The notes under the pieces are model-generated. The model had not been told where the DNA came from and did not search any database. It was given only the letters and a program-made list of their open reading frames with translations. Positions 10,405 to 43,066 of a DNA stretch of 51,177 nucleotides are shown one piece after another. The position numbers were made by a program, and so were the translations under genes. Source of the stretch: a virus (Duplodnaviria; Heunggongvirae; Uroviricota; Caudoviricetes); IMG/VR virus record IMGVR_UViG_2579778634_000021; one strand, 5' to 3'. Numbering within the stretch: position 1 is the stretch's first letter; every line of letters starts with the position of its first letter.

Positions 10405-11045
10405 TTTTCGGAATACCTCTCCCGTTTACTCAGTTGTTCAGGCAGATGGTGAAGCAGCTCACCGTTGCCGCAGTAAATGGCGGCATGGTTCGGTACCGAA
10501 GCACCAAAGCAGCACAGCAGAATATCGCCCGCCTGTGCAGAGGACAGGGGCACCCGGTAAAAGCCCGTTCCCTCCATATTGTCCAGGTACAGGTTCTGGC
10601 CGTTGCGCCACCAGTCATCCTCGCGATGAAAATCCGGCATTTCAGTCCCCGCCAGATGATAAGCATCCCGGAACAGCGTGTAACAGTCCGTCACCCCGTG
10701 CTCAAAGCGCCGTCCTGTCAGATGTGGCACACAGCGGAATTTGTGAATGTCACCCCGGCAGACCAGCCACCAGGGCAGTGCGCTTTTTATCTGCAGCCGC
10801 CGGTCAGCCTCGCTCAGCCAGGGCAGCCCACCGGGATGACTGTGGACCAGTGCCACAATCTCCCCCTGCATCTCTGCCCGCAGCCAGTCTTCCGGTGCGA
10901 TACGAAAATACGCCTCCGGCTCTGCGGAAATATTCACACAAGGGATATACCGCTCCTCCTCCGGCGTGCTTATCACGAAGCCGCACGACTCCGCAGGCGC
11001 ACACCGCCGGGCATGTGCCAGAATCGCTGATTCAGTCTGTGTCAT
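10302..11045 (-). CDS. K: tail assembly protein K (NlpC/P60-MPN type)
   Basis: Start taken at the internal Met (MTQTESAILAHARRCAPAESCGFV), which matches lambda K. Its 3' end overlaps the I start. Confidence 0.9.
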   Translation of the reverse strand: MTQTESAILAHARRCAPAESCGFVISTPEEERYIPCVNISAEPEAYFRIAPEDWLRAEMQGEIVALVHSHPGGLPWLSEADRRLQIKSALPWWLVCRGDIHKFRCVPHLTGRRFEHGVTDCYTLFRDAYHLAGTEMPDFHREDDWWRNGQNLYLDNMEGTGFYRVPLSSAQAGDILLCCFGASVPNHAAIYCGNGELLHHLPEQLSKRERYSEKWQRRTHSVWRHRHWHASAFTGICNDLAAASACM

Positions 11046-11055
11046 AAACCGGGAT

Positions 11056-11755
11056 TTACTGCGAAAGTTTATTAATGGAAAGGAAACCGCCAAAATTGCC
11101 GACATTCCTGCGCAGTTCACACCCGCGCATGCACTTGCTGCATCTGTCCTTACGGATATCCGTGGTGGGGTTGTCGAACTCATCCGCCACAGCCCCGACC
11201 GTTATACCCGCATTCATCTCCCCGGTAATCCCACATACAGGTGTTCGCCAGCATGATGCGACCGGGAAACAGCGCCCCGTCCGTCTCGGTCGGTGTGGCC
11301 AGCACAAACGAGGCCGTCATGGCTGTCAGCTGCGACATCTGCTCCACCACCCAGCGGTCACTCAGCTCCTGCTCCGGGTCCGCTTCCGGATTGCCCGCAA
11401 CGAAATTCACCGCATCCAGAAAACGGGCATACACCCGGCGGCGGACCACCGTGGCCCCCACCAGGCTCTGCAAATCCTCCGCCATTCCGGTGACAAGACC
11501 AAACAGATTGGACACCGTCAGCAACGGTCTGGCACTGCTGCCCTTTCCGTTCATCTCAAAGCCGCTGCCCTCAATCGGGTACGCCTGATATTGCCGCCCC
11601 TGCCAGGTGACCGGCTCCCCTTTTTCATTCAGCTCATTGCAGAAAAAATACCGCTCACCGCCCTGTACCGTCAGGTCGATTTCCCAGAGCACCACCCGCG
11701 GTGACTGCTCTGATTTAACCGACTCGTTCAGACTTTCTTCGTGAATATCCTGCAT
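11056..11755 (-). pseudogene. L: minor tail protein L, apparently frameshifted
   Basis: The first 191 codons (11180..11755) match lambda L up to DECGYNG. The lambda-like C-terminus (AVADEFDNPTTDIRKDRCSKC...FLSINKLSQ) continues in another frame to 11056. The shift falls in a G/C homopolymer near 11193..11200. Confidence 0.7.
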
Positions 11756-12084
11756 CAGTTCACCACCTGCTTAAACTCCGCGCTGAACTCAACGCGCAAC
11801 ATCCCGACCCGCGCAGACCACCCGGCACAGGTCACCTTTATCTGCCGGTATGCATAGGGTGGCTTCCACAAAAATGCCTTCCAGCCACCGTGCTCTGCCA
11901 GGAACGCTTCCAGATGACGGGCCTCCTCCCGGGTCACGGAAAGCATCACCCGGTATGTTTTCAGGTCAGCATTCAGCCCTGCCGCCATACGCTGTGAGTA
12001 CCCGTCACCAAAACGCACTTCACGCACCGATGGCTGCGAGTTCACCTCCATATCCGGCTTCACTTTCCAGCGAAATGTTTTCAT
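11755..12084 (-). CDS. M: minor tail protein M
   Basis: 109-aa ORF, the same length as lambda M and similar in sequence. Confidence 0.9.
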   Translation of the reverse strand: MKTFRWKVKPDMEVNSQPSVREVRFGDGYSQRMAAGLNADLKTYRVMLSVTREEARHLEAFLAEHGGWKAFLWKPPYAYRQIKVTCAGWSARVGMLRVEFSAEFKQVVN

Positions 12085-14654
12085 CGCCCGCTCCCTGATA
12101 ACATACCGCCATCACGCAACTGCAGCCGGAGTTCATCCTGTGCCCCCTTGCGGGCCATGTCATACACCGCCTTCATCAGCTGCGGCCCCGCCTGTCCGTT
12201 GATACCGTCGTTCTGAATCACCACGTGATTGTTCTGATTAAAATTAATACCTTCCGCCCGCCGCATCTGCGCCGGACTTCCGGCAGCACCCACATACCCC
12301 CCTTCCGCATAGCCCCGCATCAGGCGGTACAGGTTCCCGACACCAATCCGGCTGGTTGCCTCCTTCGTGAAGACAAACTCCCCGCGGTGAACTATCCCCG
12401 CTGGCTCATATTTGCCACCGGTTCCCGTAAATCCCCCGGTCGCGAAATGGAAGTTCGCCGCCGCAGCCTGAATGGCCGTCCCCGTGGAAGCGGATGCGCC
12501 ACCACCGAAAGCACCACCAATGGCGCTGCCGATACGCCCGACAATCCCCACCATCGCCTGCTTCAGAAAAATCTCTGTCAGCATGGAGAGCACGGAACGG
12601 GTGAAACCACGCCAGTTCTGTTCGCTGCCGGTCAGCATCGCTGCCATATTCTGTGCAATACCGTCAAAGGTCTGCGTGGCCGCGCTTTTAACCTGCGAAA
12701 AACTGTCCGTCGCACTTTCCGCCCACTCGCCCCAGCCGGACTTCAGACCCGCCATCCAGCTTCCACGAAGCTGCTCCTCCGCAGACCAGGTGTTCTTCAG
12801 TGCAGATGTGGTCTTCGCCAGCGCATCCGGATTATCACCGTACACGTCACGAAGGCGCTGCTCTTCCGACTCCCGCTGCGCCTGACGGTCGGTGAGGCCG
12901 CGGGCTTTTGCGCTGATGGCGGCCTGCTTCGCGCTCTGCTGCTGTTCAAACCGCGCCGCCTGCTGTGCCAGCTCATTCAGCCGTTTCTGGTGTTCAACCT
13001 TGTCGCCCAGGTCAGCCAGCTGGCGTTTGTACTCCAGCGTCTCTTTCTCATGGGCCAGCAGGGATTTTTCCTGCTCAGATAACTGCCGTTTCGTGGCGGC
13101 CTCTTTCAGGACCACATACTGATTTTCCGCTTTCCATAAATCCCGGCGCTGCTGGCTGATTTTCTCATTCGCACCGGCATGCTTTTCCAGCGTCAGGAGC
13201 TCGGTTTCAAGCGCCAGCATGGCTGCATGCGCCCGGTCTTCCTGGCGCTCACCGGCAGACACCTTCACACCGGACGGCTTTTTCTGCGTCGACTCATAAT
13301 CCTTTTTTGCCGACGCCATCAGCGTGTTGTAATCCGCCTGCAGGATTTTCCCGTCTTTCAGGGCCTTATTCAGCTCTTCCTGCCGGGCGGTATATTTCTC
13401 CAGTGGTGTCAGCAGGCGCTCATACGCCTTCTGCGCCTCTCCGGTATACTTCAGCTGTGACGACTCACGCTCAGCCCTGTCCCTTGCCGCCAGTTCACCG
13501 GCTTTTTCCATATCCGACTGCAGCGTTGCCGCTGCCAGACCCAGACGGGCATTTTCCCGGTCATCCCATGCGCCCTGAAGGTTGGCCCGGAAAGAGGAGG
13601 TTTTACCGCGGCGCTGGCTCCGGCTCTGGTACCACTGCCATTTTTTATCCGCCTCATCAAATGCCTTCTGCGCACTGGCGAGCATATCCGCTGAGGATTC
13701 CGGACGACCGATATCCAGAATGGCATCCCACATCGATTTGAATGCCTTCCCTGTTTTATCCGCCCAGGTCTCCAGTGTTCCCATGTTTTCTTTCAGGCGA
13801 CGGGTCTGCTCATCAAAGCCTTTCGTGGCGATATCGTTCGCCGCCTGTAAGGCCCCGGCCTCGTCTCCGGAACGCTGCAGTTGTGCAACATACGCAATCT
13901 GCTCTGCCGTCACGTTACGGAACTGGCGCGCCATCGCCATCAGTCCCGACGTCGGGTCGGTGGTCAGTTTTCCGAAAGCCTCTGCAACCTTGTCCACTTC
14001 AACACCGGAGGCAGACGCAAAACGTGCCACACTCTGGTTAATGGCATCAAACTGTTCACCACCACGCACACCGGCACTGACCAGGGCTGCCAGTGACTCT
14101 CCCGCCTGGTTAAACGTCAGCCCTGCTGCCTGCCCGGCTCTTGAGAGCGTCAGCATACGATCGGCAGTCAGTCCGGCCTGATTGCCGGAAAGGACCAGCG
14201 TTTTATTAAATTCTGAAAGCGTGGCGTCGCCCTGATACCAGGCGTACGCCAGCGCACCTGTCGCCACCGCCAGCGAGGTGACCCCGACCATCGGCAGGGT
14301 GATCGCACCGGCAAGCCCCCGGAACATGGGGAGCATCCCGCCGAAGGAGTCCTTCACCTGACCGCCCTGTTGCAGCAGGATGAGCCAGGGATTCTGACCA
14401 CCGGCAAGCTGCGTGGCGATATCCGTAAACTGTGCGGGCAGGGTTCGCATGGCCGCTTTATACTGCCCGACGGAAATCCCGGCTTTTTGTGCAGCCAGCG
14501 CCTGGCGGCTCAGGCCCTGTTCAACAGCACTGGCGGTTTTTCTGGCGTCGGTATCCAGACCTGAAAAATGACGCCTTACCCGGCTCATCTGCTCATCGAA
14601 ACGGACAGCATCCAGACTAAGGTCAATAACAAGATCACCAACCGGCTGGGACAT
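12081..14654 (-). CDS. H: tail tape measure protein H
   Basis: 857-aa ORF. Lambda H-like sequence and position downstream of G/T. Confidence 0.95.
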   Translation of the reverse strand: MSQPVGDLVIDLSLDAVRFDEQMSRVRRHFSGLDTDARKTASAVEQGLSRQALAAQKAGISVGQYKAAMRTLPAQFTDIATQLAGGQNPWLILLQQGGQVKDSFGGMLPMFRGLAGAITLPMVGVTSLAVATGALAYAWYQGDATLSEFNKTLVLSGNQAGLTADRMLTLSRAGQAAGLTFNQAGESLAALVSAGVRGGEQFDAINQSVARFASASGVEVDKVAEAFGKLTTDPTSGLMAMARQFRNVTAEQIAYVAQLQRSGDEAGALQAANDIATKGFDEQTRRLKENMGTLETWADKTGKAFKSMWDAILDIGRPESSADMLASAQKAFDEADKKWQWYQSRSQRRGKTSSFRANLQGAWDDRENARLGLAAATLQSDMEKAGELAARDRAERESSQLKYTGEAQKAYERLLTPLEKYTARQEELNKALKDGKILQADYNTLMASAKKDYESTQKKPSGVKVSAGERQEDRAHAAMLALETELLTLEKHAGANEKISQQRRDLWKAENQYVVLKEAATKRQLSEQEKSLLAHEKETLEYKRQLADLGDKVEHQKRLNELAQQAARFEQQQSAKQAAISAKARGLTDRQAQRESEEQRLRDVYGDNPDALAKTTSALKNTWSAEEQLRGSWMAGLKSGWGEWAESATDSFSQVKSAATQTFDGIAQNMAAMLTGSEQNWRGFTRSVLSMLTEIFLKQAMVGIVGRIGSAIGGAFGGGASASTGTAIQAAAANFHFATGGFTGTGGKYEPAGIVHRGEFVFTKEATSRIGVGNLYRLMRGYAEGGYVGAAGSPAQMRRAEGINFNQNNHVVIQNDGINGQAGPQLMKAVYDMARKGAQDELRLQLRDGGMLSGSGR

Positions 14655-39161: not shown

Positions 39162-39380
39162 TTAGGCGGCTTTGTTACTGGATGGAGGGAAAACATCATC
39201 CAAAGAACATTGGCACCCTAACTTCCTGAGGCCTTCTACGATCTTTCGGCAATCGTTAAGTCTAGGAGTACGGATATTCAGCTCATAGTTGGCGATGCGG
39301 GATTGCCCCCAACCAATTGCCGAAGCCAGTACAGCTTGCGAAACTCCGATTTTTTTTCGCTGCTGGGCAATTTTGTTCAT
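39162..39380 (-). CDS. cro: Cro-like repressor (XRE-type helix-turn-helix)
   Basis: 72 aa from MNKIAQQRKKIGVSQAVLASAIGWGQSRIANYE. Divergent from cI. Confidence 0.75.
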   Translation of the reverse strand: MNKIAQQRKKIGVSQAVLASAIGWGQSRIANYELNIRTPRLNDCRKIVEGLRKLGCQCSLDDVFPPSSNKAA

Positions 39381-39488
39381 TGCGGTCTCCCTAGTATTAA
39401 TCACACACCCATTACACACAATTTGTGATTAACAGTCAACCTCAATTCGTGTACAGAGTTCAATCACGTTGCGTGTTACATTTAAAGG
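39381..39488. promoter_or_regulatory. OR region with the divergent pR and pRM promoters
   Basis: Intergenic region with AATCACA / TGTGATT half-site-like repeats. Confidence 0.6.
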
Positions 39489-40136
39489 ATGAAAACGATG
39501 CATGAAATTATCGGGGAAAGGATCAAGTCCCTTAGAGAAGCTAAAGGACTTAGCCAGGCTCAATTGGCCAAGCTTTGCGGCTGGGCTGCGCCTTCACGCC
39601 TGGGGAACTACGAGTTAGGAACAAGAAAGGTTAGCGCGGATGACGCGCTGGTTCTTGGGGCGGCACTCGGCGTATCTCCGGCAAAAATAATGTTTGGCGA
39701 GGATTCAGACGCTGTATTTCGCCAATATGAGTACCCGTTATTTTCTTCAGTGCAGGCCGGGCCGTTTTCGGAGGTTGGAAGCTACACAGCAAGCGATGCA
39801 AAGGCATGGGTCCCAACGACCACAAAAGCCAGCGAAAAAGCTTTCTGGCTTGAGGTGAAAGGCCATTCTATGACTGCGCCACAGGGCGTAAGGCCGAGTT
39901 TTCCTGAGGGTATGCTGATACTCGTTGATCCGGCCGAGCCGGTAGAGTCTGGGGATTTCTGCGTGGCTTCTGCAAATGGTGATTCAGAGGCAACGTTCAA
40001 GAAGTATGAGAAGGATGCAGGGGTTAGTTACTTGGTTCCATTGAATCCGGCATACAGAACCCTGGACTGCGATCACACATGCCGCATCATAGGCAAGGTA
40101 GTTAAGGCTCAGTGGCCTGAAGAGACGTTTGGATGA
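39489..40136 (+). CDS. cI: CI repressor (helix-turn-helix plus S24 LexA-like autopeptidase domain)
   Basis: 215 aa. N-terminal helix-turn-helix and a C-terminal S24 region (GHSM ... K). Confidence 0.9.
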
Positions 40137-41238: not shown

Positions 41239-41246
41239 CGCATTAA

Positions 41247-41272
41247 CCCGGCCTCAGCGCCGGGTTTTTTGT
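41247..41272 (+). terminator. intrinsic terminator closing the immunity operon (t-imm-like)
   Basis: cccggc-ctcagc-gccggg followed by TTTTTT. Confidence 0.7.
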
Positions 41273-41518
41273 TGCCTGCACATAACTATCAGGACAGCAC
41301 CTGCCAGCCAGCCCAAGCCTCTGATTAAATTACTATAATTCTTAATACAACTCCCATATCCCGCCATCTCGTCACCACCTACTTCGCTCGTTTTTCGAAC
41401 TTTTCAGCACACCATCCTGCTGTTTCCCCCGCCTTAAGTAAGCAAACCCATCGCGGGGAAAACTATTTACACAAAAAAATCATACACATAACGTGTCACA
41501 CCCTTATTTTACACATTT

Positions 41519-41552
41519 TGTGATTGACCATTAAATCACAATATGTGACTAT
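41519..41552 (+). promoter_or_regulatory. OL operator and pL promoter region
   Basis: Palindrome TGTGATT-N8-AATCACA overlapping TTGACC, 17 nt, GACTAT. Confidence 0.55.
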
Positions 41553-41597: not shown

Positions 41598-41626
41598 AGG
41601 CTCTTTAAACAACGTCGAACACTCGA
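41598..41626 (+). promoter_or_regulatory. nutL-like site (boxA ggctctttaaacaa plus boxB hairpin gtcgaacactcgac)
   Basis: BoxA consensus-like sequence followed by a short stem-loop, upstream of N. Confidence 0.55.
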
Positions 41627-41743
41627 CTACGTGGCTGAAAAGCCAGATCACCCAACCACATAAGCTGTGGGATGCAATGCCGAAGCAACCGTCTCAGGAG
41701 GAGCTTCGAGATTGCATCGCCAAAGTTTATTCGGGAGGAATCT

Positions 41744-42016
41744 ATGTCCAGAAAAACAGAATTTAAAGGCACCGCAGCTTCTCGCCGTAGAGCTCGTCGC
41801 GCAAACCTGCAAAGTCAGGAGTCGATTAGCTCCGACAAGCTACACAGGCCAACCCCTTCACGAGTGGTCTTGCAATGCAAGCGCAAACCAGCAATGAGAG
41901 CAGAAGTTATAACTCTGACAACGTTGACCAGAAAATATGAAGGTTCAACTTGTCTTCCAAACGTAGCCATTTACGCTGCAGGCTACCGTAAATCCAAACA
42001 ACTGACAGCAAGATGA
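41744..42016 (+). CDS. N: N-like antitermination protein
   Basis: 90 aa with an N-terminal arginine-rich motif (SRRRARRANLQ). GGAGG ribosome-binding site. First gene after pL and nutL. Confidence 0.7.
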   Translation: MSRKTEFKGTAASRRRARRANLQSQESISSDKLHRPTPSRVVLQCKRKPAMRAEVITLTTLTRKYEGSTCLPNVAIYAAGYRKSKQLTAR

Positions 42017-42077
42017 CTTGTGTTGGTCGCCAGAAAATGAAATTAGGCAGCAAACCACTTATTTGAGAGGAATTAAT

Positions 42078-42701
42078 ATGTCATCAATCCGCTTAACTAC
42101 GAGAATGAAAGAGGAAATCGCTCGTAACGCTTTAATTAAGTCCGGGGTGTTCACTGAACTTGAAGAAGTAACAAAGTTAAAGAACCAGCTTGCACTTGAC
42201 GCCAGAGTTATTGCGTTTGGCGGGAAAAAGAAAACCGAAGAAGTGGACCAGCTGGCATCAAAGTTAATGGCTGCAAGTGAGGAACTTCAAAAGCTGGGAT
42301 GTTCATTTTACTCATGCGATGTCAGTTCATGTTCGATTTATCTGACTGTATCTGGAAGAAGGGTTGGCTGGCATTCATACGGAAAAGACGGCAACGGTGA
42401 AGATATATTGCTCCCTACCCCCGACAAAGATAAATGCATGTTTGACGCAGAACACAAAATAACAAAAAGGTTTGATGAAATCTGCGCATTGCAACAAAAA
42501 CTTGAAGCCAGGAAAAAGGATATAGAATCAAACGTATGGGCTGCTTTGAACTCAGTCACAACAGTTAAGCGACTTATTGAAGTTTGGCCTGAAAGCAAAG
42601 AGTTGCTACCAAAAGAAGCAGATAAAGCAAGTGCAGCACTTCCTGCTTTACGGGTAGAAGATTTGAATAAGATGATTGGACTTCCTTCCGAGGCCGCATA
42701 A
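42078..42701 (+). CDS. hypothetical protein (early-left operon, ral/sieB slot)
   Basis: 207 aa from MSSIRLTT with a GAGAGG ribosome-binding site. AT-rich; no known domain recognised. Confidence 0.5.
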   Translation: MSSIRLTTRMKEEIARNALIKSGVFTELEEVTKLKNQLALDARVIAFGGKKKTEEVDQLASKLMAASEELQKLGCSFYSCDVSSCSIYLTVSGRRVGWHSYGKDGNGEDILLPTPDKDKCMFDAEHKITKRFDEICALQQKLEARKKDIESNVWAALNSVTTVKRLIEVWPESKELLPKEADKASAALPALRVEDLNKMIGLPSEAA

Positions 42702-42835
42702 TCGGCCTTTATTTTTGGCATAAACAACAGAATAAACACTGCACTGTGTATTCATTCCAACGAGTGAATACACGGAGCAATGTCGCTCGTAACTAAACAG
42801 GAGCCGACTTGTTCTGATTATTGGAAATCTTCTTT

Positions 42836-42861
42836 GCCCTCCAATGTGAGGGCTTTTTTAT
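42836..42861 (+). terminator. intrinsic terminator (tL-like)
   Basis: gccctc-caatgt-gagggc followed by TTTTTT. Confidence 0.65.
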
Positions 42862-42925
42862 ATGCATACCAATAACGCTTCACTAGAGGCGTTTTCGTTA
42901 TGTGTAAATAAATAAGGAGCACACC

Positions 42926-43066
42926 ATGCAATATGCCATTGCAGGGTGGCCTGTTGCTGGCTGCCCTTCCGAATCTTTACTTGAACGAATCACCCGTAAA
43001 TTACGTGACGGATGGAAACGCCTTATCGACATACTTAATCAGCCAGGAGTTCCCAAAAATGGATAA
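42926..43066 (+). CDS. cIII: cIII (FtsH inhibitor)
   Basis: 46-aa [49 protein letters not shown], which matches lambda cIII. Not in the supplied ORF track because it is under 60 aa. Confidence 0.85.
   Translation: MQYAIAGWPVAGCPSESLLERITRKLRDGWKRLIDILNQPGVPKNG

Follow-up and report, generated by a model that had tools for sequence, protein, structure and literature searches.

In phage lambda, the interval between N and cIII is occupied by ral and sieB, with the terminator tL1 directly after N and ral beyond tL1. The window analysed here, a 51,177-nt stretch of viral DNA (Caudoviricetes; IMG/VR record IMGVR_UViG_2579778634_000021), carries in the corresponding interval a gene for a protein of 207 amino acids, which raises the question of what is made from this position and what it may do for the phage. 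A preliminary description had placed the gene in the ral/sieB slot as possible host-takeover or exclusion cargo.

The gene downstream of N encodes a typical member of the Nmad5 family

The protein had been described as lacking any recognisable domain. This does not hold: the Pfam profile Nmad5 (PF18757) matches it over its full length, residues 4-203 aligning with positions 1-206 of the 206-position profile (231.9 bits at a cut-off of 27; E=1.1e-68), and PHROG 1965 is matched with E=3e-81. According to tblastn, the protein is 100% identical to WP_000095078.1 of Escherichia coli SCU-104, which carries the RefSeq name 'Nmad5 family putative nucleotide modification protein'; that is, the family is already known and named, and the gene of the window is catalogued. 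Besides Nmad5, a Pfam search at E up to 1 returned just four chance-level matches, and the copy of NCBIfam that was searched held no meaningful model for the protein, though PGAP names Nmad5. Of the family positions with a conservation of 90% or more among 135 diverse members, all 18 are present. Judged from its sequence, the protein is a typical, already named family member and not an orphan. The ORF is a genuine gene, well beyond chance, as attested by the Pfam E-value and by the median dN/dS, which is 0.21 for 59 different alleles from E. coli prophages, one of them with an internal stop.

Nmad5 is a very large family (2,656 clusters at 50% identity, 1,072 at E<=1e-10), which spans phages of Escherichia, Salmonella, Klebsiella, Pseudomonas, Vibrio and Bordetella. 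Among the best 150 of the 2,656 clusters, nearly all proteins are 190-230 amino acids long and matched over essentially their whole length, a few are shorter and apparently partial, and no domain fusion hinting at a function was seen. Matches were found in 221 phage records as compared to 6 of 72,556 plasmids, and the family is almost confined to phages. With ORF056 of Pseudomonas phage M6 and the Nmad5 proteins of Dhillonvirus SM_A8 and SMS22, the protein of the window shares the full-length profile, the family signature and the stand-alone size; the Dhillonvirus proteins differ by a ~40-residue insertion in the beta subdomain and by the location of their genes in the head block on the opposite strand. 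The literature found on Nmad5 reports no activity for any of its members. By the preliminary description, clear assignment to a housekeeping function of phages would have spoken against its reading; since Nmad5 has no established function, the match obtained is not of this kind.

Position of the gene in the early-left operon

As had been stated previously, N is immediately followed by nmad5 in the pL operon (Table 1): the identity of N is borne out by Pfam, and 61 nt separate the N stop codon from the start of nmad5. The ribosome-binding site described there was located as GAGAGG, 7 nt before the ATG. Its place, adjoining N in the pL operon of a lambdoid phage, distinguishes the gene from nmad5 of M6 and of Dhillonvirus. 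The promoter upstream of N, which we take to be pL from its likeness to lambda pL, was identified by eye and remained uncalled in an automated consensus promoter scan. Operator-like palindromes, likewise seen by eye, overlap and flank it, and the sequence ACACATTTTGTGAT (41511-41524) resembles ACACAATTTGTGAT (39416-39429) in the intergenic region of the cI- and cro-like genes. Further downstream lies what is presumably a nutL site, as judged by comparison with the boxA consensus and with the GAAAA loop of lambda boxB.

In the gap between N and nmad5, the hairpin scan found no terminator-like hairpin, and the intergenic RNA has no significant structure (z=+0.68 as compared to shuffled sequences). 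The + strand scan, which also missed pL, called no sigma-70-like promoter directly upstream of nmad5. Downstream of the gene, a single clean terminator ahead of cIII had been claimed. Hairpin 2 is confirmed as the cleanest intrinsic terminator and is the tL1-like end of the N-nmad5 unit, an equally good fold being found in 1 of 200 shuffled sequences; however, it is one of three terminator-like hairpins on the + strand. Beyond them, the Rfam Lambda_thermo match spans the full model and overlaps the start codon of cIII, which is followed by kil, gam, bet and exo in this order. That the gene is AT-rich is correct in so far as its GC content (0.421) is lower than that of the window (0.514) and of gam-bet-exo (0.519), but these values make it merely moderately so.

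Table 1. Features of the early-left region and related loci; coordinates refer to the window unless stated otherwise.
Feature	Coordinates	Strand	Remarks
cro-like gene	39162..39419	-	faces the cI-like repressor gene
cI-like repressor gene	39489..40136	+	faces the cro-like gene
ORF, 162 aa	40133..40621	+	first of two overlapping ORFs after cI
ORF, 206 aa	40618..41238	+	second of two overlapping ORFs after cI
Terminator	41245-41266	+	after the two ORFs following cI; hairpin scan
pL-like promoter	41524..41552	+	TTGACC, 17 nt, GACTAT; read by eye
nutL-like site	41600..41645	+	boxA-like sequence and boxB-like hairpin; by eye
boxA-like sequence	41600-41612	+	GCTCTTTAAACAA; likeness to boxA consensus
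boxB-like hairpin	41632-41645	+	TGGCTGAAAAGCCA; GAAAA loop, as in lambda boxB
N antiterminator gene	41744..42016	+	Pfam N_peptide PF25694, E=1.6e-31, residues 1-90
Shine-Dalgarno sequence	42065..42070	+	GAGAGG, 7 nt 5' of the nmad5 ATG; read from the sequence
Nmad5-family gene	42078..42701	+	207 aa, ATG start
Hairpin 1	42690..42717	+	overlaps the nmad5 stop codon; stem 42690-42709, dG -11.0, then TATTTTT
Hairpin 2	42836..42861	+	GCCCTC..GAGGGC (42836-42853) and T6; dG -11.1, z=-2.7
Hairpin 3	42874..42900	+	AACGCTTC..GAGGCGTT (42874-42893) and T-rich tail; dG -9.9, z=-2.4
cIII thermoregulator	42913..42971	+	Rfam Lambda_thermo RF01804, 88.5 bits
cIII ORF	42926..43066	+	downstream of the three hairpins
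DpdA-like ORF, 250 aa	45192..45944	+	PHROG 887 'queuine tRNA-ribosyltransferase', E=2e-99
IS3-split nmad5 (L233)	10900-13300 of Stx2a phage LC616075.1		corresponds to window position ~42185

The gene as an exchangeable cassette

Homology between the window and 82 related loci starts at 42010-42019, i.e. at the stop codon of N, in 46 cases, and the homologous block ends at 42730-42749 in 15, at 42850-42869 in 26 and at 42900-42959 in 19 of these loci. The coincidence of the block edges with the N stop codon and with the hairpins indicates that nmad5 is an exchangeable module, which consists of ribosome-binding site, ORF and terminators and, as far as the promoter scan shows, lacks a promoter. 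It occurs behind various alleles of N and cI. Hairpin 1 accompanies the cassette in both loci examined (L007 and L002); L007 also keeps hairpin 2 with its stem GCCCTC..GAGGGC, and L002 keeps hairpin 3.

Among 5,426 complete genomes of E. coli, 201 cover the 901-bp nmad5 region to at least 80%, and most lambdoid prophages lack the gene. In 48 records of Stx2a-converting phages, it is split after approximately codon 37 by an IS3-family element encoding OrfA (108 aa) and OrfB (296 aa), which means that nmad5 is dispensable in the Stx2a lineage. Dhillonvirus also tolerates deletion of nmad5 (PMC11846954).

A helical bundle with a conserved signature is predicted

An AlphaFold model based on 135 diverse sequences reached a pLDDT of 90.2 and a pTM of 0.80, and two models agree with each other. 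Helices 8-22, 24-47, 50-72 and 127-158 are modelled as a long antiparallel bundle, residues 86-125 as a beta meander and residues 163-184 as three short helices; the tail (residues 181-207) is modelled at low confidence (pLDDT 56-63). According to this model, Nmad5 is a three-helix antiparallel bundle with a length of ~40 residues. As deduced from the order of the secondary-structure elements, the beta subdomain and the N-terminal strand should be located at one end of the bundle, and the short helices, which form a mini-domain carrying the family signature, at the other. The family has no relative among solved structures. A Foldseek search of BFVD, a check proposed in the preliminary description, yielded best matches with E down to 2.7e-13 and TM scores of 0.62-0.75; within the top 15, the named matches are all annotated as Nmad5 or as uncharacterised phage proteins, and several matches are nameless. 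The protein thus shares its predicted fold with known Nmad5 proteins (TM up to 0.75).

Residues conserved in at least 90% of the 135 members are R5, I14, A18, R43, G48, G93, T162, L166, W170, P171, E172, E175, L176, P178, L196, N197, G201 and L202, N197 being present in 100%. The mini-domain contains the signature T-x-K-[KR]-L-x-x-x-W-P-E-x-x-E-L-x-P; further family features, all of which are present in the protein of the window, are an N-terminal R-L-T, a G-G turn and L-N...G-L-P. No catalytic-looking motif is apparent in the conservation over these members. The conserved residues suggest a role in structure or binding more readily than in catalysis; the polar ones among them, R5, R43, E172, E175 and N197, could still form an active site. 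The tail is conserved as LPA...DLN..IGLP and reads LPALRVEDLNKMIGLP in the protein of the window. Conserved and poorly modelled as it is, it looks like a putative docking peptide. The sequence contains no membrane-spanning or long hydrophobic stretch, and the model is that of a soluble helical bundle. The isoelectric point is 6.8, with a family median of 7.6; an acidic DNA mimic of the Ocr/ArdA type was rejected on the basis of these values.

Neighbours of nmad5 in other phages

The genomic context of nmad5 was sampled in 80 diverse IMG/VR loci and in isolates and prophages, in which ORFs were called and clustered, and the loci were grouped into 30 Nmad5 lineages at <=70% identity. Products that recur among the neighbours, given as raw counts of lineages, are a cI-type repressor (13 of the 30 lineages), DNA polymerase A (10), a DUF2800 nuclease of the PD-(D/E)XK type (8), the replication proteins O (8) and P (6), an SSB of the Enc34/T7 gp2.5 type (6), a DUF3799 nuclease together with RecT and SSB (6), an SF2 helicase (6), an SNF2 helicase (5) and a DnaG zinc-ribbon protein (5). 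Several lineages exhibit the tight order nuclease-SSB-Nmad5-PolA or Nmad5-x-nuclease-SSB-PolA; about one third of the 30 lineages lack an annotated replication gene out to a distance of seven ORFs from nmad5. When the 142 nearest neighbours on the same strand were assigned to Pfam families, the counts, likewise raw, were PDDEXK_1 (8), DUF2800 (6), Peptidase_S24 (6), SSB (5), PolA (5), AAA_24 (3), Thy1 (2) and DUF3799 (2). ThyX, with 2 members, is the sole family of nucleotide metabolism among the 25 commonest in this census. As early phage regions are full of replication and recombination genes, proximity to such genes is weak evidence for a shared role.

In the N4-like phage FSL SP-058, nmad5 is located between ThyX and an exonuclease gene, in a polymerase-primase-Sak4-SSB block, and in ZRG1 it has a moron-like position between terminase and portal. 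In Dhillonvirus SM_A8 (L232, 4646..5765), nmad5 and a 104-aa ORF form a two-gene unit that lies within the head-gene block but is oriented against the head genes around it. Homologues are present in N4-like, YuA-like and Dhillonvirus phages, all of which are virulent groups. Replication modules with an Enc34-type SSB are known to contain several conserved hypothetical proteins (PMC5686142).

Relation to base modification

In phage M6, gp56 sits inside a thymidine-hypermodification cassette (PMC9476957). When the window was searched by tblastn with M6 gp51-gp59 and with SP-058 ThyX, gp56 (Nmad5) alone produced a match (4e-12): gp51-gp55, the thymidylate-synthase-like gp58 and the HD-family gp59 are absent from the window, whose nmad5 stands, in contrast to that of M6, without thymidine-hypermodification genes.

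A DpdA-like ORF is present in the same pL operon, 3 kb downstream of nmad5 and directly after exo and a DUF1317 gene. It is a 'hypothetical protein' in RefSeq (WP_000581108.1) and without a Pfam match; its product is a candidate DNA transglycosylase (7-deazaguanine) of the DpdA-like type. The ORF is 68% identical to gp54 of Salmonella phage SPN3UB, which has an Nmad5 homologue two genes past the DpdA-like gp54. Of 86 close lambdoid loci, 5 have a DpdA-like gene within 10 kb of nmad5, as compared to 0 of 80 diverse IMG/VR loci, and DpdA as an obligate partner of Nmad5 was rejected on these numbers. As neither the M6 enzymes nor ThyX nor a conserved DpdA partner are found, the gene's surroundings in this phage lend the family name little support, and the neighbour census suggests that the current name points the wrong way.

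Relation to exclusion, defence and Tmn

The placement of the gene in the ral/sieB slot stands in so far as nmad5 occupies the same interval of the pL operon between N and cIII and is, like ral and sieB, non-essential accessory cargo, here in the form of an exchangeable cassette. An exclusion function, however, is unlikely: as compared to ral and sieB, nmad5 is read from pL, the scan having called no separate promoter, and a search of PADLOC-DB 2.0 at E up to 1 yielded 0 matching families. The protein is larger than Ral, it lacks a membrane segment, unlike SieB, and it has no sequence relation to either of them, Pfam giving Nmad5 alone. The occurrence of homologues in the virulent N4-like, YuA-like and Dhillonvirus phages likewise makes a role in lysogen exclusion unlikely. 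A broad 'host takeover' role remains compatible with these observations. The validated 'NMAD' defence system of DefensePredictor turned out to be irrelevant, its domain being Nmad2 and not Nmad5, and the NMAD-1 demethylase is unrelated to Nmad5. An anti-defence gene of plasmid leading regions was rejected as well, given the matches in 6 of 72,556 plasmids.

The sole genetic handle on Nmad5 so far is a missense mutation by which Dhillonvirus escapes Tmn. Escape maps to a single substitution in Nmad5, which is K216E in SM_A8 and K296E in SMS22, and its reversion restores Tmn sensitivity, whereas deletion of nmad5 produces no escape and leaves sensitivity unchanged; the wild-type gene was apparently toxic and could not be cloned (PMC11846954). 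Since the deletion is without effect on Tmn, wild-type Nmad5 neither triggers Tmn nor counteracts it (PMC11846954). K216 of SM_A8 aligns with R165 in the protein of the window, i.e. with the second basic residue of T-x-K-[KR]-L (K164-R165 pair). The position of the escape substitution thus argues for the signature motif being a functional surface, which does not by itself reveal the wild-type role.

Possible function and alternatives

Starting from what the analysis showed for Nmad5, i.e. family membership, operon anatomy, fold class and neighbourhood statistics, we tentatively propose, with somewhat less than even confidence, that Nmad5 is made early and, as a binding or adaptor protein, serves or protects replication and recombination of phage DNA. 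The gene would be transcribed from pL together with N. As there is no terminator between N and nmad5 and the first hairpins follow nmad5, synthesis of its product is expected as soon as infection or induction begins; judged from the hairpin positions, it would occur before or independently of N antitermination. The protein would probably be non-catalytic and act in lytic growth, as an accessory of the replication and recombination machinery, which would be Gam, Bet and Exo in this phage and the DUF2800 nuclease, SSB and PolA elsewhere. Binding to DNA or to a partner protein may involve the basic signature motif and the tail. Nmad5 would be no exclusion function of the lysogen and, in this phage, no part of a base-hypermodification pathway. 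It would resemble lambda Gam, T7 gp5.9 and P22 Abc2, all being small, helical, early, non-enzymatic proteins encoded beside exonuclease, annealase or SSB genes, a likeness that is to be read as functional analogy alone. A wider proposal, which we regard as rather doubtful, is that Nmad5 may be misnamed altogether and be instead an early factor of wide distribution, specific to phages and without catalytic activity, whose fold is unseen in solved structures and which binds replicating or recombining DNA or the nuclease-SSB-polymerase machinery via K-[KR]-L..WPE and a flexible tail. The same surface would set the outcome of encounters with Tmn-type systems, and in lambdoid phages the factor would be immediate-early and co-transcribed with N.

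Alternatively, the early protein could neutralise a host nuclease or immune sensor, or hide the phage from it, and have no role in replication at all. Gam, T7 gp5.9 and Ocr bind and neutralise host nucleases or immune factors, and known inhibitors of host nucleases also adjoin recombination genes, so that the neighbourhood data fit this possibility too. It would further suit the place of nmad5 as first gene after N in the unit ahead of the terminators, its variable presence as a mosaic cassette, its dispensability, with disruption by an IS in Stx2a phages, and its moron-like positions in ZRG1 and Dhillonvirus, as well as the missense mutation in the signature motif that escapes Tmn and the apparent toxicity of the wild-type gene upon cloning (PMC11846954). 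However, the signature is strongly conserved in phages of Pseudomonas, Vibrio, Bordetella and enterobacteria, which argues for a very conserved target, and a Gam homologue is already encoded in the same operon. Moreover, Nmad5 is not an acidic DNA mimic, and it is nearly absent from plasmids, on which broad anti-restriction genes are common. Finally, Tmn sensitivity is the same when nmad5 is deleted (PMC11846954). We consider a pure counter-defence or host-takeover role less likely than the proposed one, yet the most serious alternative to it; by analogy with lambda Gam, it overlaps with the proposed service to replication and recombination.

It is improbable, in our estimation, that Nmad5 is an accessory of base modification that targets or scaffolds a modification enzyme on DNA, possibly in concert with the DpdA-like transglycosylase whose gene lies 3 kb further downstream. 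The position of M6 gp56 inside the hypermodification cassette (PMC9476957), the adjacency to ThyX in N4-like phages and the PHROG 887 homologue in the operon of the window, with a similar pairing in SPN3UB, are consistent with such a role, but the scarcity of DpdA-like genes near nmad5 in both lambdoid and diverse loci, the absence of the other M6 cassette genes and of ThyX from the window, the minor share of nucleotide metabolism in the neighbour census and a conservation pattern in which no catalytic-looking motif is apparent all speak against it. Far less probable still is a superinfection exclusion or defence cargo expressed in the lysogen, or restriction alleviation of the Ral type. The position does match that of lambda ral and sieB, and the AT-rich composition and the cassette with its own terminators would suit exchangeable cargo of this sort. 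Yet there is no PADLOC model for the protein and Pfam gives Nmad5 alone, the protein is predicted to be soluble without a membrane-spanning hydrophobic segment, homologues occur in virulent phages, and the gene pair downstream of cI offers better candidates for lysogen cargo. The lack of a promoter-like site upstream on the + strand points in the same direction, as weak evidence since the scan also missed pL.

For work on the role of Nmad5, an E. coli prophage of the lambdoid type with nmad5 right after N and near the well-understood Red genes represents a convenient genetic system.

A separate observation concerns the two overlapping ORFs that follow cI in the position of rexA and rexB (Table 1). 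They have a GC content of 0.413 and match the functionally unassigned PHROG 5893 and 5820 and no Pfam family above threshold, and the product of the second ORF has a C-terminal hydrophobic segment. For exclusion or defence functions of the lysogen, these two ORFs are better candidates than nmad5.
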